Below are positions 768-36,800 of a stretch of 64,000 bases of DNA, piece after piece. Location: positions 14,925 to 78,924 of the forward strand of contig CAZIJH010000004.1 of the NCBI GenBank assembly GCA_964539655.1. Reading direction: 5' to 3'. A program made the translations under genes and the position numbers. Source of the stretch: an uncultured archaeon. GTDB lineage: Archaea; Aenigmatarchaeota; Aenigmatarchaeia; CG10238-14; SCSR01. Position 1 is the first letter of the stretch. Every line of letters starts with the position of its first letter. The notes beneath the pieces were generated by a model that was not told the DNA's origin, made no database searches, and saw only the letters and a program-made list of their open reading frames with translations.

Positions 768-1316
768 TCATTTGGCAGCAACGTAAATTTTTCTCGGCCA
801 CTCTCCTCTGTCTGCTGGATCGTAAGGCAGTCCGCCACCTATGAAATGAGTTCTAACCTCGCACTTTTCAGCCGTTTCCAAGAGTGCCTTGTCAAACGAG
901 ACTATCGGCAACTTTTCATATTTGGCATGTAGGATCAATATTCTGTCAATCCTGCTTATCGGGTATTTTTCCAATTCTCTTCTCAGATCGCGTACGCCAA
1001 AATGATAATCGTTGTCGTGGTTCTGTTCGCAAGATACGAATCTGACAGAAGGATTGTCTAGCAAATTTTCCATTTTCTTTATATTTCCTCGTCTGTTAAG
1101 CAGTATGAGCTCCTGTAAATTTTCAGAATAGATTGTTTTCATCACGTTTGATTTCAGCCATTTTACGATTTTATTTCGGCTTATGTTCCAAAGAATGATT
1201 CGAGGTTCATTCAAGCCGTACATTATGACAGAAGTGTCGACTGCGTAGCCCTTTTCCAAATTTTTTTGGAGGGTCCTTGACAGTTTCGCTTTTTTCATCT
1301 CGCTGTAAATTGCCAT
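768..1316 (-). CDS. PIN-domain protein (putative nuclease)
   Basis: N-terminal VDTSVIM (first acidic residue) and C-terminal IVSFDKALLETAEK (the hhT/S-xD motif) are typical of PIN domains. Confidence 0.45.
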   Translation of the reverse strand: MAIYSEMKKAKLSRTLQKNLEKGYAVDTSVIMYGLNEPRIILWNISRNKIVKWLKSNVMKTIYSENLQELILLNRRGNIKKMENLLDNPSVRFVSCEQNHDNDYHFGVRDLRRELEKYPISRIDRILILHAKYEKLPIVSFDKALLETAEKCEVRTHFIGGGLPYDPADRGEWPRKIYVAAK

Positions 1317-1498
1317 CGATTATAAAAATATTTTAAGAGATTTAAGCTCCTTTAACGGACGCCGAAAATGTCGAGTATGAAGGAGATGAAAGCCGGCAGT
1401 CCCGAAGATATCGGATCATGTCCGCTGTTCTCCTAGGAGAAAATATAAAATGTTTTTTCATCGTTTGCCTGATCGGTCGTTCCCAATGAAAATCCTTG

Positions 1499-1798
1499 TT
1501 AAACTGTAATGTCAGGTTTCTCTTTTTTCCTGTAAAGAAAGCCGGATTTTTGCTCGATTGCCACAATGCCGTATTCTCCCAGTTTGTCTTGGGATCTGAT
1601 TTTTTGTAAAGTTGCCCTTACAATAGCCGGGTCGGCGCCTTCTATTGATCTGATAATGTCGATGCTTTTTACAGTTTTCCCCTGTCCGGTGAGTTCCACC
1701 AGCTTGTTGAAGACTTTTGTCTGTAACTGGTATTCCTTGCTCGCCGCCGATCTTTTCGATTGCAGTGCGAATTTCCTCTCGATCGCTTCCAAATACAA
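1499..1798 (-). CDS. hypothetical protein (possible winged-helix)
   Basis: 99-aa ORF, no recognisable motifs. Confidence 0.35.
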   Translation of the reverse strand: MYLEAIERKFALQSKRSAASKEYQLQTKVFNKLVELTGQGKTVKSIDIIRSIEGADPAIVRATLQKIRSQDKLGEYGIVAIEQKSGFLYRKKEKPDITV

Positions 1799-1837
1799 AT
1801 TTACCGGACAGAGAAAATTTTCGACTTTCTCTTCTAA

Positions 1838-2086
1838 CTAATCTTTAATAAGAAAGTCAATTCCATTTTCGTCAAACTCGTGCGCAATTTCGTTTGAAAG
1901 TCTCGAGCGCTGGGCGTTTAAAATAGAGTACGCTCCTTCTAAATAATGCGGAAGACCCATGCTCCTCAACAGGGGTTCGTAATTTTTAATTTTCTTTTCG
2001 ACTTGGGCGACTGAGTTTTGCAGAGAAAAATTAATTCGTTTGGATACCTCTTCTTTTACGACCTCGTTCCTCTTGAGTTTTACCAT
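1838..2086 (-). CDS. hypothetical protein
   Basis: 82-aa ORF, codirectional with its neighbours, no motifs recognised. Confidence 0.35.
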   Translation of the reverse strand: MVKLKRNEVVKEEVSKRINFSLQNSVAQVEKKIKNYEPLLRSMGLPHYLEGAYSILNAQRSRLSNEIAHEFDENGIDFLIKD

Positions 2087-2125
2087 GCTTTTTATAAAAA
2101 CAATTAAGGATTAAAACCCGTTGCA

Positions 2126-2833
2126 TCAAACAAACTTCTCAAGACCCGTCTTTGTCTTTTCCGTATCTATCACGACGATTCCCTGGTTCACCGGAAACGA
2201 GACGTTGACAACCGGAACCGAGTCGACGCGCGCCATATTGATTCCTTTGTGCGAATGTCCGTGGACAACAAGATTTGGTTTTCTCTTGATTATGACGTTC
2301 TCGTAAAGGTTGGATCCGAGAGAAGAATAGAAGTTCGGATTCTCTCCCCCGAGCGTCTTGAAAGTCGGCGCGTAATGGATAAGCAGTATTTTGAAGTTGG
2401 TATTCATCTTTTCGAGATTTTTGTCGACCAAATCGATTCTCTCGCGGAAAATATTTCCGATGTTCGGAACATTCGCAAGCTGCCACTGCGTCGGCCTTTC
2501 GAGGCTTCCGGTCGTTCCGAATATCCCGACGGATTTTTTGTTGATTTCAAGAACGGTGCTCTGGTCGTCCAAAAATTTTATCTCGCGGAATTTTCTTCTT
2601 ACCTCTTCCCGGATTTCGTCGAATTCGCTGTTCCCGAAACACGCGACAATCGGGCAGTTTATTTTTCCGAAAAGAGCGTTGTAAATCTTTTCATAATCGT
2701 CGACGCTTCCGCGGTGCACCATGTCTCCGGCCATCAGGAATAAGTCAGGTTTAATTGAGAAATTTTCAACCGCTTGGACGAACTGGTCGTAATATTTTGG
2801 AGAATGAACATCAGAGACAGCCGCAATTATCAT
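2126..2833 (-). CDS. metallophosphoesterase (calcineurin-like phosphoesterase)
   Basis: Motifs AVSDVHS, GDMVHRG, GNSEFD and VHGHSH match the conserved metallophosphoesterase metal-binding motifs. Confidence 0.85.
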   Translation of the reverse strand: MIIAAVSDVHSPKYYDQFVQAVENFSIKPDLFLMAGDMVHRGSVDDYEKIYNALFGKINCPIVACFGNSEFDEIREEVRRKFREIKFLDDQSTVLEINKKSVGIFGTTGSLERPTQWQLANVPNIGNIFRERIDLVDKNLEKMNTNFKILLIHYAPTFKTLGGENPNFYSSLGSNLYENVIIKRKPNLVVHGHSHKGINMARVDSVPVVNVSFPVNQGIVVIDTEKTKTGLEKFV

Positions 2834-2920
2834 TCTATCTATAGTTATTTGTCACGCAGTCGTCTTAACTTTGTGATTTTGGATTATTTATCGTTTAATT
2901 AGAAAATAATTTCGGAAACA

Positions 2921-3661
2921 ATGTTCGAAGGAAAAAACGGCAAGGATCTGTTTTTTGATGAATTCAACCGCAACATATCGCATCTGATCAGCGATCTGAT
3001 AAGAGAAAGCAAATTAGATGACAGACAAGCAAACAATCTTCGAAATTGTTCAAGGTCCATAAGAAGCGCCGCTAAGGCCAATCGCAAGACAAGCAACATT
3101 TTAGCTGCGCGCGCCACGTTGGTGCTGGCTAACAGCTATATTCTAGAAGGATATCATACCTTGACCGAATACAGGCTGAAAAATAGATTCAAGCATGCGA
3201 ATCCTGAATTGGTGACTGATCTTCTTGTAGAAAAAGGAAATGAAATTCAAGTGACGGAAGTTGAGAATGGCGGCGTTGCGCCTTACATTAGTTTGCATCC
3301 CAAATGGCACATACAAGAAGAGCTGTATCATGCCGCCCGCCTTGCATCGAAAATCGCCCGTTATAGTGGATACTCGGATGTCTTCAACGTCGGATTGGTT
3401 GCCGCGAGCCCGATAAACCTGAAATTGAAGGACGTTAGGAAATGTATAACATATTTCATGTCGGATTTTTCTTCTCGAAATCAGAAAGACACCGAGGACA
3501 TAAGACGTTTGGCAAATATGCTTTATTCCGAGCCGAAAATCACGTGCAAACAGATATACAATGCCCGCCTTGACGGTATTTTTGAAATAAATTCTATGGA
3601 GCATACGGTCAGGTCGCTGAACGACGAATTGTTTTCCAATGGGGCAACGCAACCCAAATAA
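2921..3661 (+). CDS. hypothetical protein
   Basis: 246-aa ORF with no recognisable motifs. Confidence 0.5.
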   Translation: MFEGKNGKDLFFDEFNRNISHLISDLIRESKLDDRQANNLRNCSRSIRSAAKANRKTSNILAARATLVLANSYILEGYHTLTEYRLKNRFKHANPELVTDLLVEKGNEIQVTEVENGGVAPYISLHPKWHIQEELYHAARLASKIARYSGYSDVFNVGLVAASPINLKLKDVRKCITYFMSDFSSRNQKDTEDIRRLANMLYSEPKITCKQIYNARLDGIFEINSMEHTVRSLNDELFSNGATQPK

Positions 3662-3684
3662 GTTTTGCCGTCAAATTACATTTT

Positions 3685-3843
3685 ATGATTCGCAAAAATA
3701 GATTGTTTGAAGAATATCAAACTCTTTCTCAAGGTATCGCAAGGATGTCTTCTATTGTAAAGGATGCGAAGAGAGATGTTTTATTTATCGGCGAGAACGA
3801 GGAAATATTGAGAAGATTGTTGATCGGACTTATTAGGCAGTGA
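3685..3843 (+). CDS. hypothetical small protein (52 aa)
   Basis: Unlisted ORF MIRKNRLFEEYQTLSQGIARMSSIVKDAKRDVLFIGENEEILRRLLIGLIRQ. Weak call. Confidence 0.2.
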   Translation: MIRKNRLFEEYQTLSQGIARMSSIVKDAKRDVLFIGENEEILRRLLIGLIRQ

Positions 3844-4249
3844 GAGCTGAAATTTCTGATTCCTTTGATTTTTTAATCTTAACTTGCCTTAAATTTTCAA
3901 TATACACCAAAAGGGTATCACACAATTCATATGCAGCTTGTATTTCGTATAGCGGAAACTTTGTTCGGCCTCCCGAGTATGCCTTGCACATACTGAAAAC
4001 ATTTTTGTCGTTACCCACGATGTTAGGGATTTCCTCATCGTGAGCGTCAAGCCATGCACTAACGATTGGTATTCTATCGGAAAATATTGATGCGGCATAC
4101 GCAGCAGTCTCCAGCATTCTTGAATCCACATTTTTGCATTCAACTTCCTGCCAAAATGTATGATTTTTTCCTAATGTTTCGTATAACTTATGAAAATACT
4201 TGGATGTTTTTGCAATTCTTTTATTTAGCTTCTCGTCGTTGACAGACAT
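3833..4249 (-). CDS. hypothetical protein
   Basis: 138-aa ORF, no motif recognised. Confidence 0.45.
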   Translation of the reverse strand: MSVNDEKLNKRIAKTSKYFHKLYETLGKNHTFWQEVECKNVDSRMLETAAYAASIFSDRIPIVSAWLDAHDEEIPNIVGNDKNVFSMCKAYSGGRTKFPLYEIQAAYELCDTLLVYIENLRQVKIKKSKESEISALTA

Positions 4250-4291
4250 CTAAAATTATCTTAGATATTAAAGATTTAAGCACAAATTTTG

Positions 4292-4365
4292 TGGACCGGT
4301 CGGGATTTGAACCCGAGACCTCCTCGTTGCGAACGAGGCTATCTACCGGACTGATATACCGGCCC
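4292..4365 (-). tRNA. tRNA-Ala (anticodon CGC)
   Basis: Reverse complement GGGCCGGTATATCAGTCCGGTAGATAGCCTCGTTCGCAACGAGGAGGTCTCGGGTTCAAATCCCGACCGGTCCA folds as a cloverleaf with a G3:U70 pair, anticodon loop TTCGCAA and T-loop TTCAAAT. No encoded CCA. Confidence 0.85.
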
Positions 4366-4452
4366 ATTGTTTAAAATAGATAATTCATTCTTATATTCAT
4401 TCTCAATAATTGAAGGCAATCTTTATTAGCGGGATTTCACGAAAGCTGACTC

Positions 4453-4725
4453 ATGCCGATTGAGAGGTTGAAGAAAGAAGTCAGCGAATTCCAGAAGGAG
4501 CTGAAGAAACATCTCTCTGAGTTTGTTACTGCCGCGTTTTCGTTTGTCGCCGCATTTTTGTGGAGAGATGCAATACAGAGTTCGCTTGACAAGCTAACAG
4601 CGGCGATACCGGCATTTGATCCAATCCTTGCAAAGTATTATACAGCAGCTATCATCACTTTTGTCGCAGTGATCTCGATAGTGGTTATCAGCAGGCTTTT
4701 GAAAGTCGAGGAAGAAACGAAATGA
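4453..4725 (+). CDS. small membrane protein (DUF5654-like, archaeal)
   Basis: 90 aa with an FxxAAFxFVAAFLWRDAIQS core and a C-terminal TM helix. Paralogous pattern to the ORF at 16114..16416. Confidence 0.45.
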   Translation: MPIERLKKEVSEFQKELKKHLSEFVTAAFSFVAAFLWRDAIQSSLDKLTAAIPAFDPILAKYYTAAIITFVAVISIVVISRLLKVEEETK

Positions 4726-4745
4726 TTATTCTCTCAGTGTAGGTT

Positions 4746-5018
4746 TTATTTTTTTTGCTGTACTTTGCTTTCACTGATTGCATAGAGTATGTCCAACGGC
4801 GTAGGAAGCATGAGTTTTCTTCTAGCCGTCGTCATGTTATTGCAGTATTCGATTTTTGTGATGTTCCTGATGTCATAACTCAGGTCGAGATCCTTTTTGT
4901 GCTGCCAGTACATTAGGCATTTCACTGCATATTCGGCAGCATATAAAAATGCGTAACCTCCAATTTGCATCAAAGGTTCACGAAGATTTTCCAAAGATTG
5001 GCCGAGCATAAAATACAA
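4746..5018 (-). CDS. hypothetical protein
   Basis: 90-aa ORF, no motif. Confidence 0.3.
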   Translation of the reverse strand: MYFMLGQSLENLREPLMQIGGYAFLYAAEYAVKCLMYWQHKKDLDLSYDIRNITKIEYCNNMTTARRKLMLPTPLDILYAISESKVQQKK

Positions 5019-5068
5019 TTAAATGAGAAATTTATAAATTAATATAAGCAATTTGTTGTATTAGCCAA

Positions 5069-5142
5069 GGACCCGTAGCTTAGCCTGGTGGAGCATCCGA
5101 CTGATAATCGGGAGGCCGAGAGTTCAAATCTCTCCGGGTCCA
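5069..5142 (+). tRNA. tRNA-Ile (anticodon GAU)
   Basis: GGACCCGTAGCTTAGCCTGGTGGAGCATCCGACTGATAATCGGGAGGCCGAGAGTTCAAATCTCTCCGGGTCCA has acceptor GGACCCG/CGGGTCC, anticodon loop CTGATAA and T-loop TTCAAAT. Confidence 0.85.
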
Positions 5143-5186
5143 TGACTTATAACTTACGGGAGTAGAGTTCCGGTAGACTACAATAC
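5143..5186 (+). repeat. left-end block of cassette unit 1, homologous to 6348..6391
   Basis: tgacttataacttacgggagtagagttccggtagactacaatac versus taaataacttacgggagtagaatgccgatagaattagtgtatac. Both copies begin immediately after a copy of ctccgggtccat. Confidence 0.5.
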
Positions 5187-5237
5187 TAGAGTCAAAGTTC
5201 GAATGATAATTTTAAGAATATGTATTCTAATTCTTGA

Positions 5238-6206
5238 TTGATGGTGAATATTACTAGCTTTGTTGTCGGTGCGAAGTGTTTTTTCGACGCTGATAAATCA
5301 GGAACAGATTTGGTCCCAAAAATTAATTCACTTATTGCGCAAAAGATGATTGGCAGAGGATTCTCGACAGATGACAATGTTGATTTGTTTCGAGGCATAC
5401 CAACTTTTATGATGCGATTCTACGCTAATCCAACTAAGCATAATCCTCCTCTTGTGATGAGAATTAAGAAGGGTCTCGGCATCATTAATCAGGAGGAATT
5501 AGACGATAAAGTCTTCTTTGATGCATTGAGTAGACTTGTTGATGAGCATCCACATAAGATATCATTCTCGATTAAAATCGGCCAGATTTCCAACAACAGG
5601 AATGGTTACCTGATAAAGATAGAAACTGAACCAGCAATAGTTGCAAAGAAGAGGAATTTGGGAATTGAACCGCGTGTAAATGCTACTCGTTACAACGAAA
5701 TTATCGACTATAACAAGAAACTTGTTCACGAAATAATCAATGAATTGGGGGCAGGCATTCTTGAAGAGCCTAAGGTGCTCGCGCCACTTGATAAGATATT
5801 ACCGGATAATTTGTTTGAAGAAAATTTCATGACAGATTTACCCAGAGAAGTAGCTGAATGTTTAACAGAGGTCAACAAATGTTTTTCGAATGATTGCTAC
5901 ATTGCGTCCTCAATTATGATACGAAAAGCATTGGAAGTTGCCGTTACCAAAAAACTCGATCAAGCGGGTCGGGGAAAGAAATTATTCGATGATAATGGAG
6001 ACGAGATTTCGTTGAAAAGAAAACTCAATCTATTACCAGAAGTTGCTCCCAATATCAAAAAAGATTTGGAAGCAATCAAGATAGTCAAATGGTTCGGAGA
6101 TAAGAGTGCACACAGTCCGAACAATCCTATTTTTGCAAAAGACATAGAACAAAACATCGTGCCGAAGATTAGATATTTCCTGATAAATCTAGGTTTAAAG
6201 AAATAG
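5238..6206 (+). CDS. protein with a C-terminal DUF4145-like domain (defence/Abi-associated domain family)
   Basis: The C-terminal ~110 aa (CYIASSIMIRKALEVAVTKKL...IKIVKWFGDKSAHSP...IVPKIRYFL) resemble DUF4145, which occurs at the C-termini of HsdR and Abi-like proteins. The N-terminal ~200 aa are unknown. Confidence 0.55.
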   Translation: MMVNITSFVVGAKCFFDADKSGTDLVPKINSLIAQKMIGRGFSTDDNVDLFRGIPTFMMRFYANPTKHNPPLVMRIKKGLGIINQEELDDKVFFDALSRLVDEHPHKISFSIKIGQISNNRNGYLIKIETEPAIVAKKRNLGIEPRVNATRYNEIIDYNKKLVHEIINELGAGILEEPKVLAPLDKILPDNLFEENFMTDLPREVAECLTEVNKCFSNDCYIASSIMIRKALEVAVTKKLDQAGRGKKLFDDNGDEISLKRKLNLLPEVAPNIKKDLEAIKIVKWFGDKSAHSPNNPIFAKDIEQNIVPKIRYFLINLGLKK

Positions 6207-6240
6207 AGACAACGCCGACTTCATTGTAATGTGTACATAA

Positions 6241-6347
6241 TTCCGCTAGAATAGCTAACTATTTATTTTTACACACACAATATTTCAAAACAAGCCGCAG
6301 ATTATGGCAAGAGACTTTAACTTAGGGTCGGTAACGCTCCGGGTCCA
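6241..6347 (+). repeat. conserved ~107-nt right-end block of cassette unit 1, ending in a copy of the tRNA-Ile 3' terminus
   Basis: attccgctagaatagctaactatttatttttac...atatttcaaaacaagcc.cagatt...ttaact.gggtcgg.aac.ctccgggtcca is near-identical to 6877..6984. The last 11 nt equal tRNA-Ile positions 5132-5142. Confidence 0.7.
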
Positions 6348-6391
6348 TAAATAACTTACGGGAGTAGAATGCCGATAGAATTAGTGTATAC
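6348..6391 (+). repeat. left-end block of cassette unit 2, homologous to 5143..5186
   Basis: See 5143..5186. Confidence 0.5.
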
Positions 6392-6437
6392 AAAAATAGT
6401 TGATTGCTTTATTAAGAGAAGTTTTTAAAAATTTAAT

Positions 6438-6845
6438 ATGGTAGATAGACAGAATATTAAACTCAATAATTTGATGTTTCTTGCTCTTGACCATGGTATA
6501 GATTCGATAAAAGCAGGTGGTCCATTAATATCTTTTGTAATTACAGAATCTAAAGGTAAACGCAATATCAAACGATTTGTGACCAAAAGATTAGAAGATG
6601 GTCAAAAAGAAGCAACACAATTTGTTTCTACATCAAAATCTAAAATAGACAGATACGCACTTGCTTATGACGGCTATGTAACAATAGAAAATAAAAAGTA
6701 TAGTGCTATAATTGTTCGGGCAGGAGAGCACGGAGATAAAGAATCAATGTTGATATGTCAAAGATATAGCCCAAAAAAATTTCTACACAAATTTGAAGTA
6801 ATAGGTAATCCAGCAATGATTGGAAATCAAAAAAATCTTCTTTAA
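6438..6845 (+). CDS. hypothetical protein (cargo of cassette unit 2)
   Basis: 135-aa ORF with no recognisable motif, lying between the repeat blocks. Confidence 0.45.
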   Translation: MVDRQNIKLNNLMFLALDHGIDSIKAGGPLISFVITESKGKRNIKRFVTKRLEDGQKEATQFVSTSKSKIDRYALAYDGYVTIENKKYSAIIVRAGEHGDKESMLICQRYSPKKFLHKFEVIGNPAMIGNQKNLL

Positions 6846-6876
6846 ATTATTCTTTACACGAATGTGTGTGAATGAC

Positions 6877-6984
6877 ATTCCGCTAGAATAGCTAACTATT
6901 TATTTTTACGCGGCCAATATTTCAAAACAAGCCACAGATTTGTCGCGGAGAGCTTAACTTTGGGTCGGCAACACTCCGGGTCCA
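6877..6984 (+). repeat. second copy of the ~107-nt block, ending in ctccgggtcca
   Basis: Direct repeat of 6241..6347, again terminated by the 11-nt tRNA-Ile 3' end (6974-6984). Confidence 0.7.
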
Positions 6985-7011
6985 CTCAACTATTCTTTAT
7001 CTGGTGAAATT

Positions 7012-7221
7012 ATGAAGAACGACGAATGCGTAATCTATGTTTACGGCCCTAAAGGCCGCTTGTTGCAAAAATACAGTAAGATAAAAGATATCTGGACCCA
7101 GACGACTATTTCTAACGGCAAAGTCAGAACAATGACTGCCGAACAGTTGTTGTCGCATCTGTTGCCGCCACTTGCTGGAGCGAGCGGTGCAAAAATAAAA
7201 GTCGTGAAGAAAAAAATCTAA
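7012..7221 (+). CDS. hypothetical small protein
   Basis: 69-aa ORF preceded by GGTGA, directly distal to the second repeat. Confidence 0.3.
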   Translation: MKNDECVIYVYGPKGRLLQKYSKIKDIWTQTTISNGKVRTMTAEQLLSHLLPPLAGASGAKIKVVKKKI

Positions 7222-7228
7222 ATGATCT

Positions 7229-7894
7229 TCATTTGCCCGACAATGTGTAGTTCTTTTTCGGAATCATTTCTAATCTTCTATTTAAAACGTATCTGGCATT
7301 CCTTTTTGCTTTCTTGCTAGATGTGCTCGGCTGATTCATCGTCTCAGTTAAAAATCTCAAATCAATTAGATACGGCATCTTATTCGTGTCAGACTTTAAT
7401 GGCATACATAAAGTCAAAATTAGTAGCCTGCTTGAAATTGTCGGCATCGCAAAAATTTCAAAATCAGCCGCGCATTTTCCAAATTCCCTTTCCGTGTTAA
7501 TCTTTCCGTGAATGTAGACGTCATCGGCTGTTCCGAGATAGATAGCGGGTTTTGCCTCCATCATTTTGATGTTATTGTTGTCGTATATTCTGTGCTGCGG
7601 AGATTGGTTCCTGAGATAATCTATCCTCCAAGAATAGTCTGCGTCCATTTCTCTGTTGGAGAAGCAGCTGTAAACGTCTTCCGGATTTGCCGGGAATCTT
7701 ACAGACATCAATTTTTTCGAAGATTCGTCCGCATTTCTATACATCTTCATTATTCTGTGCGCAGGAGGAACCTCCCGAAAAAGTGATTCTACCATGTTTG
7801 CGGGCAATTTTATTGCATCTATGATCTTTGCGACTTTCATGCGATTCAAAATAAATCCGAATTGAAAAAATTTAAGCAACAATGTTATGGTCAT
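7229..7894 (-). CDS. hypothetical protein co-oriented with and abutting the Ku/ligase genes
   Basis: 221 aa, end-to-end with the ligase gene. No LigD polymerase or phosphoesterase motif could be recognised by eye. Confidence 0.45.
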   Translation of the reverse strand: MTITLLLKFFQFGFILNRMKVAKIIDAIKLPANMVESLFREVPPAHRIMKMYRNADESSKKLMSVRFPANPEDVYSCFSNREMDADYSWRIDYLRNQSPQHRIYDNNNIKMMEAKPAIYLGTADDVYIHGKINTEREFGKCAADFEIFAMPTISSRLLILTLCMPLKSDTNKMPYLIDLRFLTETMNQPSTSSKKAKRNARYVLNRRLEMIPKKNYTLSGK

Positions 7895-8892
7895 TTGAAT
7901 GAAACTTCTTCCAAATTTTCATCGAGCGTGCATTCTTCTGGCAGCTTGTCCGTCCTTAATCTTTTGAAGGAAGGTGCCCTGAATTTCAGATTCCTGTTCA
8001 GGTGCAAAAATTCAACTTCGGCGACCAGTTCGGGCCTAACCCATTTCGTCTTGCTCAGGATGGAAGGTATTTCTTGGATTGGCTGGTCACCGAACGGATT
8101 TTTATCCGTCTCCAAATTTCTGACCTTGTCGGATATCGCGGAGTATCCCTGCTCGTCCAGTCCTGTGCCCACCCGGCCGAGATAGTGAAACTTCCTTTTG
8201 AAAAAAATTGCGCACAGCAGGGCCCCGAAGTATTTCGCCCGCCATCCTTCTCCTCTTGTGTACCCGACTATCACGCAATCGAGCGTCCGCAGAGTCTTGA
8301 ATTTTTTCCAGTCATTGGAACGTCGTCCTGTCTGGTAGCTCGAATCGATGCGCTTCGCCATCACTCCCTCGAAATTTTTCTCCTTTGCCAGTTTGAACAA
8401 TTTTTTCCCTTCGCCGAAAACGTGGAAAGATATCAGGAATATTTTGTTCGCTACTACTGTTTCCTGGAGGATTTTTTTCCTTTCCAAAATCGGAAGATCG
8501 GTCAAGTCCTTTCCGTCCTTGTGCAGAATGTCGAAGACGACATAAGTCGCTGGATAGATTTTGGACATCAGCTCTATCCTTGTCCTGTCTCCCGTAAGCT
8601 CCCTGCTCGCAAGCAATGAGAAATCGGGCTTCCCGTTTTTGAAAACTACTATCTCTCCGTCGAGGATGACGCGCTTTGCGTTTATGTCCTTCCATATGTT
8701 TTTGAATTCCGGATACCTTCCCTCGAAATAGTTGAACCTCCTGTTCAGCAGTTTGAGCGACTTGTTCTCCGTATCGATGTAGCTGATCGTCCTCGTGCCG
8801 TCGAACTTCAGCTCGAAAATGAATTTCTCGTCGTCGAACGGCTTTGAAATAAATGCCAGCATCGGTTTTATTTCTTGCCCCCACAGCGACAT
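7891..8892 (-). CDS. ATP-dependent DNA ligase (LigD-like ligase domain)
   Basis: Motif I ELKFDGTR (KxDGxR adenylation lysine), an OB-domain region, and a length typical of stand-alone LigD ligase domains. The track ORF starts at a TTG (8904); the first ATG gives MSLWGQ at 8892. Confidence 0.8.
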   Translation of the reverse strand: MSLWGQEIKPMLAFISKPFDDEKFIFELKFDGTRTISYIDTENKSLKLLNRRFNYFEGRYPEFKNIWKDINAKRVILDGEIVVFKNGKPDFSLLASRELTGDRTRIELMSKIYPATYVVFDILHKDGKDLTDLPILERKKILQETVVANKIFLISFHVFGEGKKLFKLAKEKNFEGVMAKRIDSSYQTGRRSNDWKKFKTLRTLDCVIVGYTRGEGWRAKYFGALLCAIFFKRKFHYLGRVGTGLDEQGYSAISDKVRNLETDKNPFGDQPIQEIPSILSKTKWVRPELVAEVEFLHLNRNLKFRAPSFKRLRTDKLPEECTLDENLEEVSFK

Positions 8893-8907
8893 TATAATCA
8901 ACAAAAA

Positions 8908-9699
8908 TTATTTTTTCCTTTTCTTTTTCGCGGATTCTACGCTGATCTTCAATGCCTCCATCAGATTCTTAGTCTCTGCAACCTTCTCTTCCTTGTACGC
9001 GAAAATCCTGCCTTCTGATTTTGCCTTTATCAAATCCTTCAACGCTTTTGTGTATGCGTCATTGAATCTTGACGCATCGAAATTTTCAACCACCAAATTT
9101 TCAACCAGCATCTTCGCGAGATCGAGTTCCTCTTTTTTTGTCTGGACCAATTCCTGAAGTTCCGGCAGCTCGTTGATGTTTCTGAGCTCGTCCGCGTAAT
9201 GCAGGATGTGCATGACAAGCCCGTTCTTGTACGGCCTCAGGGAAATGATGTATTCCTTGTCCCTCATCACGACTTTTCCGATCGCCGCCTTGTTTGTCAG
9301 CCTCATGACTTCGATGAAAAGCGAGTAGGCTTTTTCGCCCTGTTTGTCAGGCACGACATAATAAGATTTCTCGAAAAATATTGGATCTATCTGAGATACG
9401 TCAACGAATTCCTGCACGTCGATCATTTTTGTGGTCTTCGGCTTGACCTTCTGTATGTCATCCCTGCTTACGGCGACTATTTTATCTCTCGTTATCCTGT
9501 ATCCTTTCTCTATTTCGTTCCATTGCACCTCGTGCCCTTCAGGGCACCATCTCTTGTAGCTCAGCTGCTCATGATGCTCCTGACATAGCATGCTGAAATT
9601 TATTCTATTGTCGTCCGCCGCGGCGTACACCCTGACGGGTATTAGAACCATTCCGAATGATATGGAGCCTGTGAAGATCGCCCTCGCCACGTACGACAT
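8908..9699 (-). CDS. ku: Ku protein (non-homologous end joining)
   Basis: AIFTGSISFGMVLIPVRVY is the hallmark Ku N-terminus, with an acidic/basic C-terminal tail. The likely start MSYVARAI is at 9699; the track ORF extends to 9783. Confidence 0.8.
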   Translation of the reverse strand: MSYVARAIFTGSISFGMVLIPVRVYAAADDNRINFSMLCQEHHEQLSYKRWCPEGHEVQWNEIEKGYRITRDKIVAVSRDDIQKVKPKTTKMIDVQEFVDVSQIDPIFFEKSYYVVPDKQGEKAYSLFIEVMRLTNKAAIGKVVMRDKEYIISLRPYKNGLVMHILHYADELRNINELPELQELVQTKKEELDLAKMLVENLVVENFDASRFNDAYTKALKDLIKAKSEGRIFAYKEEKVAETKNLMEALKISVESAKKKRKK

Positions 9700-9802
9700 C
9701 GGCACGATCTTTTTTCCCTGAGCCACCGCTATTAGAGTGATGGAATTCGGATATAAAATTTTTCTTAAAATAAGATGGGACAACGCGTCATTTGATTAAA
9801 TT

Positions 9803-10447
9803 TTATTCTCCGGACCATTCCTGCTGCCTGTCGAATAAGATGTCGTGGTATTCCCAGTACTTGCCTTGCTCGCCGGCGCACTTGCTAGCTTCCGCTGCCT
9901 GGTACGACAGCTTGTGGAAGTTCAGCGGGAAATCCCTGTAATAGATTTTCACTTTGCCTTCGTAGTCCTGCAAAATCTGTTTCAACGTCAATTCTGCTTT
10001 CGCGCAGAACGGGCACTGGTAGTCAGAAAATTCAACGATTGTGACGTTTGCATTCGCTGACCCGAGCGGCGGATTCGTTCCTGTCCCTATCTGTGGATTT
10101 GCTGACGGATTCGAGAGTTCCGAATCGATTATTGATTTGAAATTTTCCAAAGGAACCGCGCCGACAAGATTTTTTCCGTTGATGAAAAATGTCGGGGTGC
10201 CTTCCACTCCATATGATTTCCCGTCACTGATATCGCTCTGTATTTCGGAATTGTATTTGTTTGTTGTCAGGCAAGTGCTGAATTGGTCTACGTCAAGTCC
10301 GAGTTCGCTTGCATACTGCCCGAATTTTGGAGAGATGACTGCGGGCTTCTGCTGCTGAAGTAAAAAGTATCCGCTGACGATTATCGTTAACAATATTAGT
10401 AATCCGACGTAGTGCTGGATTTTCAATTTCATTTTATCAATACTCAT
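9803..10447 (-). CDS. DsbA-like thiol:disulfide oxidoreductase, membrane-anchored, apparently circularly permuted
   Basis: N-terminal TM anchor. Then come the C-terminal-type DsbA elements (ELGLDVDQF...GVEGTPTFFINGK), a Pro/Gly-rich linker, and only then the N-terminal-type element VTIVEFSDYQCPFCAKAE with its CxxC, followed by the start of the helical domain. Confidence 0.75.
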   Translation of the reverse strand: MSIDKMKLKIQHYVGLLILLTIIVSGYFLLQQQKPAVISPKFGQYASELGLDVDQFSTCLTTNKYNSEIQSDISDGKSYGVEGTPTFFINGKNLVGAVPLENFKSIIDSELSNPSANPQIGTGTNPPLGSANANVTIVEFSDYQCPFCAKAELTLKQILQDYEGKVKIYYRDFPLNFHKLSYQAAEASKCAGEQGKYWEYHDILFDRQQEWSGE

Positions 10448-10473
10448 TGACGACGTGCTTGCTTAAATCTTAT

Positions 10474-16113: not shown

Positions 16114-16416
16114 ATGATGCACCAGATCGTAAAGAAAAAAGATGACTGGCGCACGCACAGCAGGAACATGTTCATCCAGGACGAGGTCGTAAAATTTACA
16201 AGGGCTTTCAGGGACAATTTTTTCACTCTTATCATTTCTTCGTTCGGTCTGTTGGTCGCTCTTAGCTGGAACAATTTCTGGACGACATGGGTAAATTCTC
16301 TTTCTCCCGAAAGTGGCATACCTTACAAGTTTATCATTGCGATCACCATGACGGTGCTCGCGGTCATCTTCACTTATTTATTTTCAAGAATAAAGGAATC
16401 AACAAGACACAAATGA
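16114..16416 (+). CDS. small membrane protein (DUF5654-like), paralogue of 4453..4725
   Basis: FFTLIISSFGLLVALSWNNFW core and a C-terminal TM helix. Confidence 0.45.
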   Translation: MMHQIVKKKDDWRTHSRNMFIQDEVVKFTRAFRDNFFTLIISSFGLLVALSWNNFWTTWVNSLSPESGIPYKFIIAITMTVLAVIFTYLFSRIKESTRHK

Positions 16417-20061: not shown

Positions 20062-21009
20062 ATGAGAATTATTTTGAAAAAAGGTAAGCAAAAAGAACTG
20101 ATTGATTTAACCAAATCAAAATTATCTTTATCATGGTCAGAATTGGGAAGGCTCCTTGGAATTAAACCCAATTATTTGAGTGGTGATTTGCGATTTGAAA
20201 ATGTCACAATCAGCGATCAATTATATAAAAATTTGTCAAGAATGAGCGATGTTAATTTTGATAATTTCATTGAAAAAAAAGTTCCTAACAATTGGGGGCG
20301 AATAAAAGGAGGGAAGTTATCTACTCATAGACAGCGTCCTCGAAAGTTACTCATTAAACAACATTCTAGTAATCTTGCAGAAGCTATTGGTATAATTTTA
20401 GGTGATGGTAGTTTGTATAACAATAAAAAACATGGAATCAACCAATTAGTTGTAACTGGCCATATCAAAAATGATCAAATATATTTGTCTAAATTTGTGA
20501 AGCCGCTTTTTGAAAATTTGTTTAATTTAAAATTTAGTATTAAAAAAGATAACAAAAAACATGTAATAAGAATTTACAGCCAAAAGAAAGATGTTTTATA
20601 TACTTTAGAAAAACTTGGCATACCGATTGGAAATAAAATAAAGAATGATGTTGGAATACCGAATTGGATATTTTCGTCAAAAGATTTCGTTAAATCATGC
20701 ATACGTGGTATTGTCGACACTGACGGTTCTGTATTCCCAATAACTGGAAGAAACTATACATATGTAGAAATTACATCCGCTTGCAAAAATTTAAGAAAAT
20801 CTATAGACCAAAGCATGAAAATAATTGGATTAAAAACATCCAAATGGACCAAAAATGGAACTCCAAAAATTTATATAGCAAACAAACGAGATATTTCTCG
20901 CTATTACAATGAAGTGGGATTTAATAACCCATATCATAAAAATAGATTTAAGCTCCTATCGTCTAGTCCGGTCAAACAAAGCCGAAAGGACGCCGGGCTT
21001 TCGATCTAA
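20062..21009 (+). CDS. LAGLIDADG homing endonuclease, free-standing, with an N-terminal HTH-like domain
   Basis: Two LAGLIDADG motifs (AIGIILGDGSLY, IRGIVDTDGSVF) spaced ~110 aa apart. The ORF has no stop before 21009, so its last ~19 codons overlap the 5' part of the downstream tRNA. Confidence 0.7.
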   Translation: MRIILKKGKQKELIDLTKSKLSLSWSELGRLLGIKPNYLSGDLRFENVTISDQLYKNLSRMSDVNFDNFIEKKVPNNWGRIKGGKLSTHRQRPRKLLIKQHSSNLAEAIGIILGDGSLYNNKKHGINQLVVTGHIKNDQIYLSKFVKPLFENLFNLKFSIKKDNKKHVIRIYSQKKDVLYTLEKLGIPIGNKIKNDVGIPNWIFSSKDFVKSCIRGIVDTDGSVFPITGRNYTYVEITSACKNLRKSIDQSMKIIGLKTSKWTKNGTPKIYIANKRDISRYYNEVGFNNPYHKNRFKLLSSSPVKQSRKDAGLSI

Positions 21010-29356: not shown

Positions 29357-30037
29357 ATGAATTTTCAAAAAACTGCAGAACTTGCAGAATTTGTGGCTGA
29401 CATTACCGGTGATGGTCATTTGCAATTTAATGAACATCGAGGAAATATTCAATTTACTTCAAAAAATCTATTTTCAATTAAAAATTTTAGAAAACTTTGT
29501 AAAAATTTGTTTGATACCGATACAAAATTAATGAAAATAAAGAAAGACGGCAAATCATTTACGCTTCGATATAGAACATATTTTTCTTCTTTTGCAATTG
29601 CTAGTGAATTAGTAAAATTAGGAGTTCCATTTGGGAACAAAACGAACAAAATTTTTAGTATACCCAATTGGATTTTGAAAGGAAATTCAGAACTCAAGAA
29701 AGCATATTTACGCGCATTCTATACTTGTGAAGGATCAGTTTATTGTACTAAAAATAAAGATAAACTGAGATGGAGGATAGAATTAGAACAATATAAAAAT
29801 GAAAAATTAAAACATAGAGGGAAAATTTTTATGAACCAGATAAAACATTTACTTGGAGATTTTGATGTTATAACATCACCAGTCAGATTTGGAAAGAAAC
29901 AGAAAAGAAAAGACGGATCATCTTCAATTGCATTGAAAATTGATATCGAAAAGTCATCATTTGAAAAATTTGCTAATAACATAGGGTTTAACGATAAGTT
30001 TAAGACTCAAAAATTACTAACTGCAATTGCAGAATAA
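29357..30037 (+). CDS. LAGLIDADG homing endonuclease, free-standing (paralogue of 20062..21009)
   Basis: Motifs VADITGDGHLQ and AFYTCEGSVY. The stop is 3 nt before tRNA-Leu. Confidence 0.7.
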   Translation: MNFQKTAELAEFVADITGDGHLQFNEHRGNIQFTSKNLFSIKNFRKLCKNLFDTDTKLMKIKKDGKSFTLRYRTYFSSFAIASELVKLGVPFGNKTNKIFSIPNWILKGNSELKKAYLRAFYTCEGSVYCTKNKDKLRWRIELEQYKNEKLKHRGKIFMNQIKHLLGDFDVITSPVRFGKKQKRKDGSSSIALKIDIEKSSFEKFANNIGFNDKFKTQKLLTAIAE

Positions 30038-30040
30038 TAT

Positions 30041-30126
30041 GCGGGGGTCAGATAGCCCGGTCAATTCTGCTGGCTTGAGGTGCCAGTCCTTTAGTAGGTA
30101 CGCGAGTTCGAATCTCGCCCCCCGCA
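30041..30126 (+). tRNA. tRNA-Leu (anticodon GAG), long variable arm
   Basis: GCGGGGG...CTGGC-TTGAGGT-GCCAG, a 14-nt variable arm, T-arm GCGAG-TTCGAAT-CTCGC, and acceptor CCCCCGC+A. Confidence 0.8.
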
Positions 30127-30144
30127 CTCTTATTTTCCGAAAAT

Positions 30145-33708: not shown

Positions 33709-33782
<74 letters not shown>

Positions 33783-33838: not shown

Positions 33839-36800
33839 GTGGAGACAGCTAAAATATGCCTGGCTCTTCTTTTTATTTTCGTGATTTTGCCGAAACCTGG
33901 CCTGGGTGCGAATCCTGTTCCTTCGCCGATGGATAGTCTGTTCGGAAAAAATCTTTACAAGGCGATCATCCATGTCAACGCGGCCGACAAGGGCGAGATC
34001 AGCGCGTACTATCACAAGAATTTCGCCGGGTACGGCGACAACGGTTTCGACGCAGTCTTTTTCACTCTAGACGACAACCTGATGAATATAACAAGCGAGG
34101 AGCCGTACAACGGCGGATTCGAATCATTCACTTCATGGTCGTCAAAGGAGTCCACCGTTCCCGGCGAATATGTCGGAGAGAAAAGTTCGGCAAAATATCT
34201 GAGAGGCGGCAATTCTTTGCACGCGTCCGCGAAAGTTTCCGGCGAGAATTTCGGATACGCAGGCGCGTACCAGGACATGCTCTGGCAGGTTTCGGCCGTC
34301 GCGGCGGACTTGAATTTCAACTTCTCGATCTACCCTGTCGCGATGGATAACAAGACCGAATTTCCTGATTCGCTGTTTGCCGTAGAGTTCGGTTTCAATT
34401 ACTACAATTCGAGGAACTACACGCCGAAGATGGTGCTGCTTTTCCAGGAAAATTCTTCCGAGACATTTTCGGACGGGTCGCCATTCTCAAACGACTTCGA
34501 CACGGTCTACCACGTGATGAATCCGCAGGACCAATTGAAATTCAACTTGTGGAACACCTTCAGCCTGAACCTCACTGATTTGATTGTAAATTATTACGGA
34601 AGCGAAAAGGCTCTCAACCTGAAGATCAACAACATCGGGATATACGCGTACAGCCGCAACGGCGCCGATTCCGAATTTTATGCCGACGTCGTGAAGCTTT
34701 CCGGCAACAACGCAGTCCAAGAGACTTTTTCAACGCTGACGGGCTCGATAAAAAATTACGACAGCCAGGAGCTGAGGATGGTTCCGGGAGAGAGACTGGA
34801 AATGCAGAACGTCATGCTGTATCTCAACAAACAAGATTATTTCCAGAAGGCGGGATACGGAGTCGACAACACAAGGAAAACAATCAAAATGGCGCATGAC
34901 GACGGAGGCTATCTTTTTGTTTCAAAGCCTGACAGCAGCGCAGAATACAGGACAAACATGTTCGAAAACCTTTGGCCGGTCGACGGGATGGCCGTGTACT
35001 TTTCAAGAAACATGGGACGCGAAGGCTTCGCAACCGACATCTGGGATTATTATCTTACGAACGGAATTTTTGCGCAGGGGATTGCCGAAGCCCATCCGAT
35101 GTACGTCAGCGACGCGGAATCGTACGCGAAATGGCTGCCCGCGCAGTACGTGTATGCAGATGACAATTCTCCGGAGAGCATAGTCGAGGCTCTGGCGCAG
35201 GGAAGGAGCTTCGTGGAGCGCAACAGGGCGAAGGTTCCAATGATGATTTTTTTCTCCGCAGAAAACAGCCAAGTTCCTGCGGGAAAATTCCCCGTCTACG
35301 TCGACTCGAGCAGGGACGAAGCCGTCCTCGATATAGAGCTGACAAATATTCCGCCCGAGGCGAAAATTCTTAGGCTGATAAGAAACGGTACTTTTTTGTC
35401 AGACGAGCCCATATCCGGAACTTCTTTCAGCAAAACATACACGCCGTCGCTGCCGGACAAATCTAATTATTTCAGGATCGAGATTTTGAATTCGTCGAGC
35501 GTCATGGCGTTCAGCAATCCGATAGTGTACATAAAGAAAAACATTGATCCGGATATCTGGATGGCTCTCGCCCCCTCTCTCCAGCAGGGATCCGCGAGTT
35601 CGTCGATAGAATCCATAAGTTATTCCGGAAAAAATCTCAGCTTCGTTGTGAAATCCAAGCGGGACGTTTCAGTCACCACGAAAATATTTTCCGAAAAGCC
35701 TCCGTCAGAGGTGATGAATGCGGAGAGCTGGGACTACGATCCTGCCGCGAAAATAGTTAGAGTCGAGACTGCTGGAAAAAATTCCGACAAAACAATTGTT
35801 TCTTTTGACAGTAAGCACAATCGTGCGCCGACATGGAAGGACAATTCGACTTCTCCGCTGAATCCTACGTTCTATTTTGCAAATGCGGAATACAACTTCC
35901 GTATATCGTGGGAAGACGATGACGGAATCGGCGAAGTCGTTTTTGAACTGAACGGGGCTAATTTTACCGTTGAAGGGAACGGAGATTATTCCTTTGCCGC
36001 GAAAGATTTGGCTGCTGGGAATTATGAGTACAGATGGTATGCAAGAGACGCAATGGGGATGTGGAATTACACTCCGATCCAGAATTACGAGATTAAAAAA
36101 TCTCCGATAAATTTGGTCACGCTGTTCCTGAACGGCTTGGCAAATTCCGATGCGACAACGTACGAATCGGAAATAAACGCGACGGCAATTTCACAGTCTG
36201 GCAAACCTTTCCTGTGGCGCGACGGGAAAAATGTGGGAAATCCCGAAATTGAAAATCTTCCTGCCGGAAAATATTTGTACAAGGCAAATGCAAGTGGAAA
36301 TGAAAATTACAGTTCTAACCACGATGGGGTTTCTTTCTACTTTACGATTGACAAAGATTTCACGGACACCGATCCGCCGAAACTGAACTCTCATTCGATC
36401 GAAGCCTTTATGGAAGGCGGAAAAGTTTTTGTGAATGTCACTGCTTTTTGGTCGGACAATTTGGAGATAAGCGAAAATTTGATCGAGGAAAATTTTACGG
36501 GAATTGTCCGAAATACTACGATGGAAAACCAATTTGTCCAACCAGTAGACCAAGGCGAATTTCTGTTCAGACTGCTGGCGAACGACACGTCCAACAATTT
36601 TAATGCGACCGATTTCACCGCAGCGGTAGTCGACATCCAGGCCGGAAAAGTTTTCGTCAATTTCAGCGGGTTCGGAGGGGACATAACTTACGAATTCGTT
36701 ACGAAAAATCAGACGGAGCCTGAAAATAAAAATACGACTTCCTATTTCCAAATTTTGTCCGACGGAAAAATCCTAAATGCGACGGTGATTATCGAAAGTT

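Follow-up and report, generated by a model that had tools for sequence, protein, structure and literature searches.

The window analysed here is a 64-kb stretch of DNA from an Aenigmatarchaeota (DPANN) archaeon (contig CAZIJH010000004.1 of assembly GCA_964539655.1, positions 14,925 to 78,924, forward strand). At its tRNA-Ile(GAT) gene stand two single-gene inserts with matching ends, in the order B-O-P'-cargo1-P-O-P'-cargo2-P-O-B' (Table 1). This agrees in coordinates and genes with an earlier note on the sequence, which had described a tRNA followed by a unit with a DUF4145 gene, a unit with a 135-aa gene and the chromosome. The units measure 1.2 kb (unit 1) and 0.64 kb (unit 2) and hold one intact gene each, and no pseudogene remains or gene fragments were found in either. 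Both are compact, with 95–97 nt between the core and the start codon and 31–33 nt between the stop codon and the P arm. Each cargo gene has a TATA-like box of its own at about −28 (TTTTAAGA, ∼28 nt upstream of the ATG, in the case of cargo 1). The base composition is foreign, with a GC content of 37.3% in unit 1 and 32.5% in unit 2 against 42.8% for the window, and the units form the GC minimum of the first 12 kb.

Table 1. Positions of the features at and near the tRNA-Ile(GAT) locus, numbered from the first nucleotide of the window
Feature	Position	Strand	Basis
tRNA-Ile(GAT), intact, integration target (attB side B plus core O)	5069..5142	+	ARAGORN; Rfam RF00005, 68.5 bits
Core copy 1 (O), CTCCGGGTCCA, final 11 nt of the tRNA	5132..5142	+	Exact-match count
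Left arm (P') of unit 1, homologous to 6348-6391; motif TAACTTACGGG at 5150-5160	5143..5186	+	Comparison
Cargo 1, 321 aa, C-terminal DUF4145 (divergent HEPN) domain	5241..6206	+	Pfam, PHROG
Right arm (P) of unit 1; T-rich run TTTATTTTT; motif TAACTTAGGG at 6318-6327	6240..6336	+	Comparison
Core copy 2 (O), centre of the complete attP-like P-O-P' junction where the two units meet	6337..6347	+	Exact-match count
Left arm (P') of unit 2; motif TAACTTACGGG at 6352-6362	6348..6391	+	Comparison
Cargo 2, 135 aa	6438..6845	+	ORF; no Pfam match
Right arm (P) of unit 2; motif TAACTTTGGG at 6955-6964	6877..6973	+	Comparison; Logan contigs L009/L010
Core copy 3 (O), then chromosomal flank B' (CTCAAC...) without P' homology	6974..6984	+	Exact-match count
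Ligase	7891-8904		ORF list/Pfam
Ku	8908-9783		ORF list/Pfam

The last 11 nt of the tRNA, CTCCGGGTCCA, occur exactly three times in the 64 kb, always on the plus strand, where shuffled sequences lead one to expect none. The recurrence of the tRNA tail at 6337 and 6974 that the earlier note had pointed out is thus exact, and no repeats of the 3' end were found for the other three tRNAs of the window. The tRNA-Ile is regenerated intact and direct repeats of its 3' end bound the units, as they do in integrative elements. The P' arm follows cores 1 and 2 only and the P arm precedes cores 2 and 3 only, a distribution predicted by crossover inside O. The twelfth base is T after cores 1 and 2 and C after core 3, which fits a model in which the T comes from the P' arm and the C from the chromosomal flank. 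The three junctions (tRNA-O-P', P-O-P' and P-O-flank) bear out the view, also put forward before, that this is the footprint of repeated site-specific integration, and the layout is the anatomy expected of two successive tyrosine-recombinase-type integrations of related elements at one tRNA 3' end. A core of 11 bp is short and was counted against the explanation proposed below, although the att cores of Thaumarchaeota span 8–26 bp and so reach down to 8 bp (PMC6563490).

The right-hand blocks (6240-6347 and 6877-6984, ∼108 nt) are homologous and lie 637 nt apart. They have identical runs of 33 nt (ATTCCGCTAGAATAGCTAACTATTTATTTTTAC) and 17 nt, and their two ungapped segments match at 59/64 and 32/37 positions. 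Sequence has been replaced in two intervening patches, ACACACA/GCGGCCA and ATGGCAAGAGAC/TGTCGCGGAGAGC, and there is an indel of 1 nt; the homology of the ∼107-nt blocks of the earlier note is upheld, and their near-identity was an overstatement. The replaced patches of the P arm are 70% different and adjoin the identical 33-nt and 17-nt runs, so that the conservation looks like that of constrained sites with free spacers between them. The ∼44 nt that follow the tRNA (5143-5186) and the ∼44 nt that follow the first repeat (6348-6391), correctly taken as homologous before, have an exact 18-mer in common and match at 26/29 positions (90%) in an ungapped segment (5149-5177 and 6351-6379), with a 3-nt indel immediately before it. 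The motif TAACTT[AT]C?GGG occurs four times in the window, all on the plus strand and in the arms only, with 0.31 occurrences expected. The arm boundaries rest on two copies and say nothing of the minimal functional site. A repeat comparison found no terminal inverted repeat that the two units share. A transposon or casposon with a target-site duplication was rejected, as the arm motif is direct rather than inverted and there is no shared terminal inverted repeat.

No integrase gene lies inside the units, whose only genes are the DUF4145 gene of unit 1 and the 135-aa gene of unit 2, and none of the 69 ORFs of at least 100 aa in the window matched Phage_integrase or another recombinase family. 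The absence of a recombinase from both units, as stated earlier, therefore extends to every window ORF of this length. The units hold attL/attR-type ends without integration or transfer genes, as do cis-mobilizable elements (CIMEs).

The two cargo proteins are unrelated (local alignment score 30, against 33 ± 5 for shuffles). Cargo 1 matches DUF4145 in Pfam (E = 1.2e-8), a divergent HEPN RNase domain (PMC3710099, PMC13017515), and a homologue that is 43% identical adjoins a type I restriction-modification (R-M) system. Cargo 1 is a defence-type DUF4145/HEPN protein, and the description of the cargo as defence-like made previously is supported for cargo 1. Proteins identical to cargo 1 are encoded on Logan contigs from three SRA runs. 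Two contigs with DUF4145 homologues, one in a type I R-M island (L018) and one in a non-informative context (L019), showed no arms and no tRNA. Cargo 2 has no Pfam match, and its predicted model (pLDDT 92) has no significant fold match in the PDB. Its homologues occur in bacterial metagenome contigs, where canonical attC sites (GCCTAAC...GTTAGGC) enclose at least 9 of 73, suggesting that the family often circulates in bacteria as single-gene integron cassettes. No tRNA and no arms were found at the cargo 2 homologue loci (L020-L022 and 80 metagenome loci). PADLOC assigned neither cargo to a defence family; a marginal JetA match (E = 0.0045) was disregarded.

The earlier note had suggested a search for further copies of the arms. 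The window contains none, even when three mismatches are allowed, and exact-pattern scans of three public collections yielded none either. A 20-mer of the P arm had no match in the genome, viral and metagenome contig collections, and neither the P' 18-mer nor degenerate P-O and O-P' patterns had one in the viral contigs. The central 18-mer gave two viral matches of 18–19 nt only, which were judged to be due to chance. The 25-nt 3' end of the tRNA had six matches in genome contigs, all from unrelated lineages and none with arms. A parental autonomous element with the same att specificity was likewise seen neither in the window nor in the exact-pattern scans of the collections. In the nearest relatives available (62% ligase identity, L011-L014) the Ku-ligase pair is present with no tRNA-Ile nearby, and the locus is not syntenic. 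Among the Logan contigs of the three runs there was no empty site, no single-unit variant and no circle or excised junction.

We propose, with a probability of about one half, that a pair of related non-autonomous integrative elements of very small size occupies the 3' end of tRNA-Ile(GAT), one behind the other. Each unit would consist of a P' arm (∼44 nt), one accessory gene, presumed to be expressed, and a P arm (∼97 nt). A circular P-O-P' form would have recombined with the 11-bp core O, regenerating the tRNA and leaving O at both ends, and a second, related unit would then have entered at one of the resulting O sites to give B-O-P'-cargo1-P-O-P'-cargo2-P-O-B'. The recombinase would have come from outside the units and the 64 kb and acted in trans; candidates are a host enzyme and the integrase, probably of tyrosine type, of an autonomous element related to the units. 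A candidate binding site for it is TAACTTA(C)GGG, which flanks the cores in direct orientation. Nothing shows that the units still move. Mobilisation in trans, as put forward in the earlier note, found no direct backing, since no other arm copy, integrase-bearing relative, empty site or alternative junction was seen. We infer the type of recombinase, its action in trans, insertion at the present small size rather than later trimming, and any present-day mobility.

It is possible, though in our judgement less probable, that the units are instead decayed remnants of two related integrase-bearing elements (provirus, plasmid or island) that integrated in succession at tRNA-Ile and were reduced to one useful gene each. 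The units would then never have been mobile at 0.6–1.2 kb and would now be fixed, by the standard CIME route. DPANN genomes are streamlined and useless DNA is expected to be trimmed from them, which was counted in favour of such decay. The integration footprint would be the same as that of small elements, and the lack of an integrase in the 64 kb, the lack of other arm copies in the window and the exactly scanned collections, and the absence of junction polymorphism across the three SRA runs all suit remnants. Tandem att-flanked remnants are also accepted to arise by decay followed by accretion (PMC5704250), and degenerate elements with partial tRNAs are common beside island tRNAs (bioRxiv 10.1101/2020.12.28.424599). 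Against this, both units must have lost all but one intact gene with its promoter and yet kept both non-coding arms (44 + 97 nt) at 85–92% identity, with no gene fragments and, at each of the four boundaries, less than 55 nt of DNA left unexplained. Moreover, the GC content of 32–37% suggests inserts too young for slow piecemeal trimming.

A further reading goes beyond the two small elements and is improbable: a working gene-capture platform of a new kind, in which a recombinase from elsewhere inserts and excises tRNA-anchored miniature single-gene cassettes, with arms of about 44 nt and 97 nt, at the 11-bp tRNA-derived core. Such a platform would be functionally integron-like and mechanistically unrelated to attC/IntI. 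It would tap the same pool of accessory and defence genes, because the cargo 2 family circulates as bacterial integron cassettes.

Local duplication in the absence of a mobile element, by unequal crossing-over or replication slippage that copied the region of the tRNA tail, would have a parallel in the repeats distal to E. coli tyrT. It would account for the direct repeats of the tRNA 3' end and for blocks ∼637 nt apart. However, the intervening gene should then have been copied, and the cargo genes are unrelated while the arms are homologous; in addition, nothing corresponding to the P arm is present within the tRNA or upstream of it, and both units are of foreign base composition. Local duplication is effectively refuted.

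We consider it very improbable that the locus is an integron-type cassette array (CALIN), with the blocks as attC sites recombined by IntI and the similarity to the tRNA incidental. Short single-ORF cassettes separated by conserved non-coding repeats of ∼100–150 nt, with sites less than 4 kb apart (637 nt here), have the appearance of such an array, the attC-flanked homologues of cargo 2 point the same way, and Aenigmatarchaeota MAGs are reported to contain integrons and CALINs (PMC9668308). However, no RYYYAAC...GTTRRRY pair was found on either strand between 5001 and 7300, whereas the same regular expression finds attC beside 9 of the 73 homologues. The single-stranded fold of the P-O-P' junction (6245-6410) is worse than that of shuffles (z = +0.86 on the minus strand and +1.03 on the plus strand), homology past the crossover point extends over 44 nt rather than 6 nt, and IntI is absent. 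P' is missing from the last block and P from the first junction, which places the crossover in the tRNA-derived core and not at an R' site.

An assembly artefact, in which a metagenome repeat was misthreaded and unit 2 does not truly lie between unit 1 and the right flank, is scarcely credible. The cargo 2 protein is recorded only from the NCBI MAG contig and from no Logan contig, and Logan contigs from SRR12113383, -84 and -85, which are 100% identical to the window, stop or start at the shared 33-mer (L015-L017 end at 6269; L009 and L010 start at 6880), so that they do not prove the order of the units. Breaks exactly at the shared 33-mer nevertheless mean that the repeat, in both block variants, is present in the reads, with a genuine branch in three runs, and all Logan contigs that carry the right flank, again from three SRA runs, have the identical junction. 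The repeat is thus real in the raw-read assemblies. The blocks differ at ∼15% of positions and the sole exact repeat, 33 nt, is shorter than a read, which normal assemblers resolve; a contig of unit 2 is expected to measure ∼664 nt and the matched Logan contigs are all at least ∼1 kb, which would explain the missing record.

CIMEs arise in Firmicutes by decay of identifiable ICEs or IMEs and are several kilobases long. The two units share with those of the ICESt1/ICESt3 family of Streptococcus thermophilus the attL/attR boundaries without integration or transfer genes, the tandem position at a tRNA 3' end, the internal hybrid att site and the dependence of any mobility on the integrase of another element (PMC5704250). 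They differ in measuring 0.64 and 1.2 kb with one gene each, in their DPANN host and in having no known parental element or integrase. The re-use of one tRNA or tmRNA site is shared with the ssrA islands of Dehalococcoides (PMC3146451), the tycheposons of Prochlorococcus and their remnants (bioRxiv 10.1101/2020.12.28.424599) and archaeal integrated elements (PMC6563490). In such arrays, as here, older elements are pushed inward, partial tRNA copies lie between them and the cargo is adaptive or defensive; however, they contain integrases or their fragments, whereas in the present locus there are none and the units have no sequence but the arms in common. Att-flanked elements without an integrase (CIMEs) and tandem tRNA/tmRNA arrays are established concepts (PMC5704250, PMC6563490, PMC3146451, bioRxiv 10.1101/2020.12.28.424599) and are the closest known kinds, which makes the earlier label of a previously undescribed type too strong.

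Integrase-less elements are also known among IMEX elements and pdif modules, which sometimes carry a single gene, form tandem arrays at one site and are moved by the host XerC/D. Their sites are 28-bp dif-like imperfect palindromes, whereas the site here is an asymmetric tRNA 3' end in which only a 4-bp TCGG/CCGG symmetry can be made out by eye. Integron cassettes and CALINs, including archaeal ones (PMC9668308), are likewise compact single-gene units with conserved non-coding sites and no recombinase in the array, but the present units have neither attC cores nor a hairpin; they have an 11-bp tRNA-derived core with 44-nt and 97-nt arms and are anchored at a tRNA, not at attI. Elements with an SSV-type ‘suicidal’ integrase (PMC7253208, PMC8371274) are also archaeal, target tRNAs and retain no intact integrase after integration, because attP lies inside the int gene. 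In contrast to these, which leave int(N) and int(C) at their two ends, the arms here abut intact, unrelated genes.

We found little literature on integrated mobile elements of DPANN archaea, and a full-text search for Aenigmatarchaeota together with integrase and tRNA returned nothing relevant. In this DPANN genome accessory and defence genes have landed at a tRNA 3' end on at least two occasions. If the units were inserted at 0.6–1.2 kb by a recombinase acting in trans, this would be an integron-like solution reached by another route, and they would be the smallest att-flanked integrative elements known to us. Should they be remnants, the locus is no more than an ordinary scar, yet a clean example of a streamlined genome that keeps only the useful gene of an invader. 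With just two units from one genome known, the finding is at present a lead and not yet a system.

Two other interpretations of the conserved blocks were rejected. For an SSV-type split integrase or a small minus-strand gene across the core, the frame is open for ∼31 codons, with no start codon and no family match; three of the four isolated differences in it are synonymous, which is not significant. For a structured RNA, a bridge-RNA-like guide or a tRNA half, the consensus fold of the blocks is weak (−8.3 kcal/mol), with three compensatory pairs that carry little weight with two sequences, and no consistent complementarity is seen in the two variable patches. The blocks have no Rfam match: between 4000 and 8000 only tRNAs reach the gathering score, and the three matches far below gathering (E ≤ 1) at 5069-5143, 5111-5171 and 4293-4365 overlap tRNAs.

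Ku and the ligase lie where the earlier note had placed them as the nearest recombination genes. They form an NHEJ gene pair, and no link to the integration site was seen. A relative whose ligase is 62% identical has the two genes side by side as well.

The 11 nt that terminate tRNA-Ile, CTCCGGGTCCA, occur as three exact copies in the 64 kb, all on the plus strand, where the chance expectation is 0, and each copy adjoins conserved blocks, as the earlier note had described. We refer to this core as O, to the conserved blocks before and after it as P and P', and to the chromosomal sides as B and B'. The two P blocks have identical runs of 33 nt and 17 nt and agree at 59 of 64 and 32 of 37 bases in their ungapped segments, the remaining differences being a 1-nt indel and two short patches that are replaced almost wholly; their actual identity is about 85-90%, below the near-identity first claimed for them. 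The P' arms have an exact 18-mer in common and, past a 3-nt indel, an ungapped segment with 26/29 matches; the two arms diverge after ∼44 nt. No further arm copies were found in the window in a search allowing up to three mismatches. Four matches to the motif TAACTT[AT]C?GGG were counted in the window, against 0.31 expected. All are on the plus strand and inside the arms: two stand 9 nt ahead of cores 2 and 3, the other two 4-7 nt past cores 1 and 2. These direct repeats are candidate recombinase-binding sites.

Features of the tRNA-Ile locus and of integron arrays that carry homologues of its second cargo protein (L numbers, metagenome contigs)
Feature	Sequence	Position	Strand	Remarks
tRNA-Ile(GAT)	window	5069-5142	+	intact; Rfam 68.5 bits
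Core copies O	window	start 5132, 6337, 6974	+	exact match to tRNA-Ile tail
P blocks including core	window	6240-6347 and 6877-6984	+	closed by core copies 2 and 3
P' arms	window	5143-5186 and 6348-6391	+	∼44 nt each, directly after core copies 1 and 2
Unit 1	window	5143-6347		1205 nt; one gene (cargo 1), 5241-6206
Unit 2	window	6348-6984		637 nt; one gene (cargo 2), 6438-6845
Cargo 2 homologue	L028	375-761
Cargo 2 homologue	L033	2702-3091
Cargo 2 homologue	L035	1217-1603
Cargo 2 homologue	L036	235-618
Cargo 2 homologue	L040	2563-2946
Cargo 2 homologue	L055	834-1223
Cargo 2 homologues	L041, L042, L030

Logan contigs derived from SRR12113383, -84 and -85 are 100% identical to the window. Three of them (L015, L016 and L017) end together at window position 6269 and two (L009 and L010) start together at 6880. 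An exact 33-nt repeat that can be entered and left by two paths each would force k = 31 unitigs to stop at just these positions, so the repeat is present in the reads of three runs and is not the invention of a single assembler. The unit 2 gene is recorded only on the NCBI contig; its Logan unitig would be ∼664 nt, and its absence is probably due to a length cut-off, since no Logan contig below ∼1 kb was seen. No empty site, one-unit variant or excision was seen, and every contig with the right flank has the identical left end.

Comparison of the three junctions in register gives the order tRNA(B)-O-P'-cargo1-P-O-P'-cargo2-P-O-B', with no P before the first core and no P' after the last, and with T, T and C as the bases following core copies 1, 2 and 3. 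The middle junction, P-O-P', is a complete attP-like site. This pattern matches reciprocal crossover within O by two related circular P-O-P' elements integrating successively, and it backs the original proposal of repeated site-specific integration at the tRNA 3' end. We consider an integration footprint at tRNA-Ile to be well supported, with a probability of about 0.8.

Cargo 1 (321 aa) has a C-terminal DUF4145 domain (Pfam, E = 1.2e-8), a divergent HEPN RNase domain characteristic of abortive-infection proteins and of those linked to restriction-modification (PMC3710099; RAZR, PMC13017515). It has only two homologues among 5.8 billion proteins, one of which (43% identity) adjoins an AlbA_2 gene, a complete type I restriction-modification system and another DUF4145 gene. 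Cargo 2 (135 aa; 14 homologues) belongs to a family with no Pfam model and no fold match in the PDB, yet its AlphaFold model, built from the homologue alignment, is confident (pLDDT 92). The units are the lowest-GC stretch within the first 12 kb of the window (37.3% and 32.5%, against 42.8% for the window) and are built alike: the core lies 95-97 nt before the start codon, 44 nt of it arm, a TATA-like box stands ∼28 nt before each ATG, and the stop codon is 31-33 nt from the P arm, which contains the T-run TTTATTTTT that could be an archaeal transcription terminator.

Neither unit encodes an integrase or recombinase, as first noted; each holds one gene of another kind. When all 69 non-overlapping window ORFs of at least 100 aa were compared with Pfam as a set, and every one except the last (63184-63765) individually again, none matched a family of integrases, resolvases or transposases, or Cas1. 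The Ku and LigD-like ATP-dependent ligase genes (7891-9783, minus strand), proposed earlier as the nearest recombination genes, are an NHEJ pair in a DPANN archaeon that we see no reason to connect with the site. The two genes also stand side by side in a relative whose ligase is 62% identical (L011-L013). One database entry, from an NCBI contig of 92 kb, is 100% identical to the ligase; it has 5,154 homologues at E ≤ 1e-20, and among the best 120 every organism-named source is an Aenigmatarchaeota MAG, which makes the host a DPANN archaeon. An exact P-arm 20-mer was absent from 185,579 species genomes, IMG/VR and JGI metagenomes, other arm patterns gave nothing beyond chance 18-mers in viral contigs, and the arms are therefore known from the host genome only, by exact-match scans that copies with a few substitutions would escape. 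The 25-nt tRNA-Ile end was found in six genomes, all of unrelated lineages, and the locus is not syntenic in the closest available relatives (62% ligase identity).

There is, in our estimation, an even chance that a recombinase supplied in trans inserted the units as small elements that were not autonomous. Such insertion is favoured because both units are extremely compact, being intact single genes with no debris, because both non-coding arms are retained with a patchy conservation that resembles constrained sites, because unit composition has still not drifted toward that of the host, and because the cargo family elsewhere moves as single-gene cassettes. That the units are instead the leftovers of two larger, decayed elements seems rather unlikely. 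Such decay accords with the lack of a recombinase, a second locus or polymorphism, and a minimal site cannot be defined from two copies. Loss of useless DNA is to be expected in the streamlined genomes of DPANN archaea, which also counts for decay. Decay followed by accretion is moreover the documented origin of CIMEs (PMC5704250). The locus resembles these integrase-less, att-flanked elements, its units standing in tandem behind a tRNA gene. Comparable arrays have been described for streptococcal ICE/IME families (PMC5704250), Dehalococcoides ssrA islands (PMC3146451), tycheposons and their remnants (bioRxiv 10.1101/2020.12.28.424599) and archaeal integrated elements (PMC6563490); the present locus differs in size (0.64 and 1.2 kb, one gene each), in its DPANN host and in having no identifiable parent element. 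A tRNA-anchored cassette platform would be the more novel reading, unproven and improbable.

The layout and cargo pool of the locus are like those of integron cassettes, and cargo 2 homologues (∼45% identity) lie in classical integron arrays on GC-rich, presumably bacterial, metagenome contigs, between canonical attC sites (GCCTAAC...GTTAGGC, 73-126 nt, ∼10 nt downstream of the stop and ∼48 nt upstream of the start). The attC pattern stands beside at least 9 of 73 homologue loci, as on L028, where GGCCTAAC...GTTAGGC is found 10 nt past the stop and ∼48 nt ahead of the start; neighbouring attCs have 22-58 identical nt in common, and 80 homologue loci (337 kb) contain no tRNA gene. However, reading the present junctions as attC fails on both tests: the R''/R' pair is absent from both strands of 5001-7300, and shuffled sequences fold better than the P-O-P' junction does. 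Homology past the crossover is also 44 nt, not 6 nt.

A transposon with target-site duplication is unlikely because terminal inverted repeats are missing from the units, and local duplication is excluded, the two cargo proteins being unrelated in sequence. A structured RNA was rejected, as only tRNAs reach the Rfam gathering score in 4000-8000, three further matches (E ≤ 1) overlap tRNAs rather than the conserved blocks, and the consensus fold of the two blocks is -8.3 kcal/mol. A split SSV-type integrase was also dismissed: the minus-strand frame across the core (6285-6391 and 6922-6984; ...STPVSY(L/KS)WTRSV(T/A)DPKL...ICGLF*) is open for only ∼31 codons and lacks a start codon. Its copies show four isolated differences, three of them synonymous, and a P' indel of 3 nt, a sample too small for significance; the frame could be the fossil of a gene once spanning attP.

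Cargo 2 homologues have repeats of their own on other contigs. In a second, co-occurring Aenigmatarchaeota MAG (GCA_964646855.1, contig L020; same sequence in Logan SRR12113383, L021) a homologue with 68% identity follows a YchF-type GTPase gene and has the contig end 109 nt behind it, with no tRNA. A 24-nt inverted repeat (9924-9947 and 10447-10470, 88% complementary) encloses the gene, and downstream the motif TCAATA...TGCGACAG.AACC recurs in tandem as a third copy. The end of L021 (SRR12113383_453135, 6020-6038) is the Nextera adaptor CTGTCTCTTATACACATCT, hence technical and not biological. On L022 (also L029) the perfect 12-nt direct repeat TTCGAATTCCAA abuts the homologue on both sides (5027-5038 and 5480-5491), with a third, degenerate copy 216 nt upstream.

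Elsewhere in the window, beyond the 3' end of tRNA-Ala(CGC) (4291-4365, minus strand), a run of ORFs without family matches (138, 246, 82 and 99 aa; 768-4249), broken by a weak PIN domain (768-1316) and a metallophosphoesterase (2126-2833), could be a further insertion at a tRNA 3' end; no repeat of that end lies within the window, whose start is only 4.3 kb away. A 1248-aa plus-strand ORF (33839-37585) with no Pfam match starts 57 nt past tRNA-Thr(GGT) (33709-33782), the 3' end of which is not repeated in the window. Two free-standing LAGLIDADG_3 homing-endonuclease-like genes lie on the plus strand (20062-21009, E = 1.9e-9; 29357-30037, E = 1.2e-7), the second ending 4 nt before tRNA-Leu(GAG) at 30041-30127. 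Two plus-strand DUF5654 paralogues (4453-4725 and 16114-16416) are 11 kb apart, one of them directly upstream of the tRNA-Ile locus.
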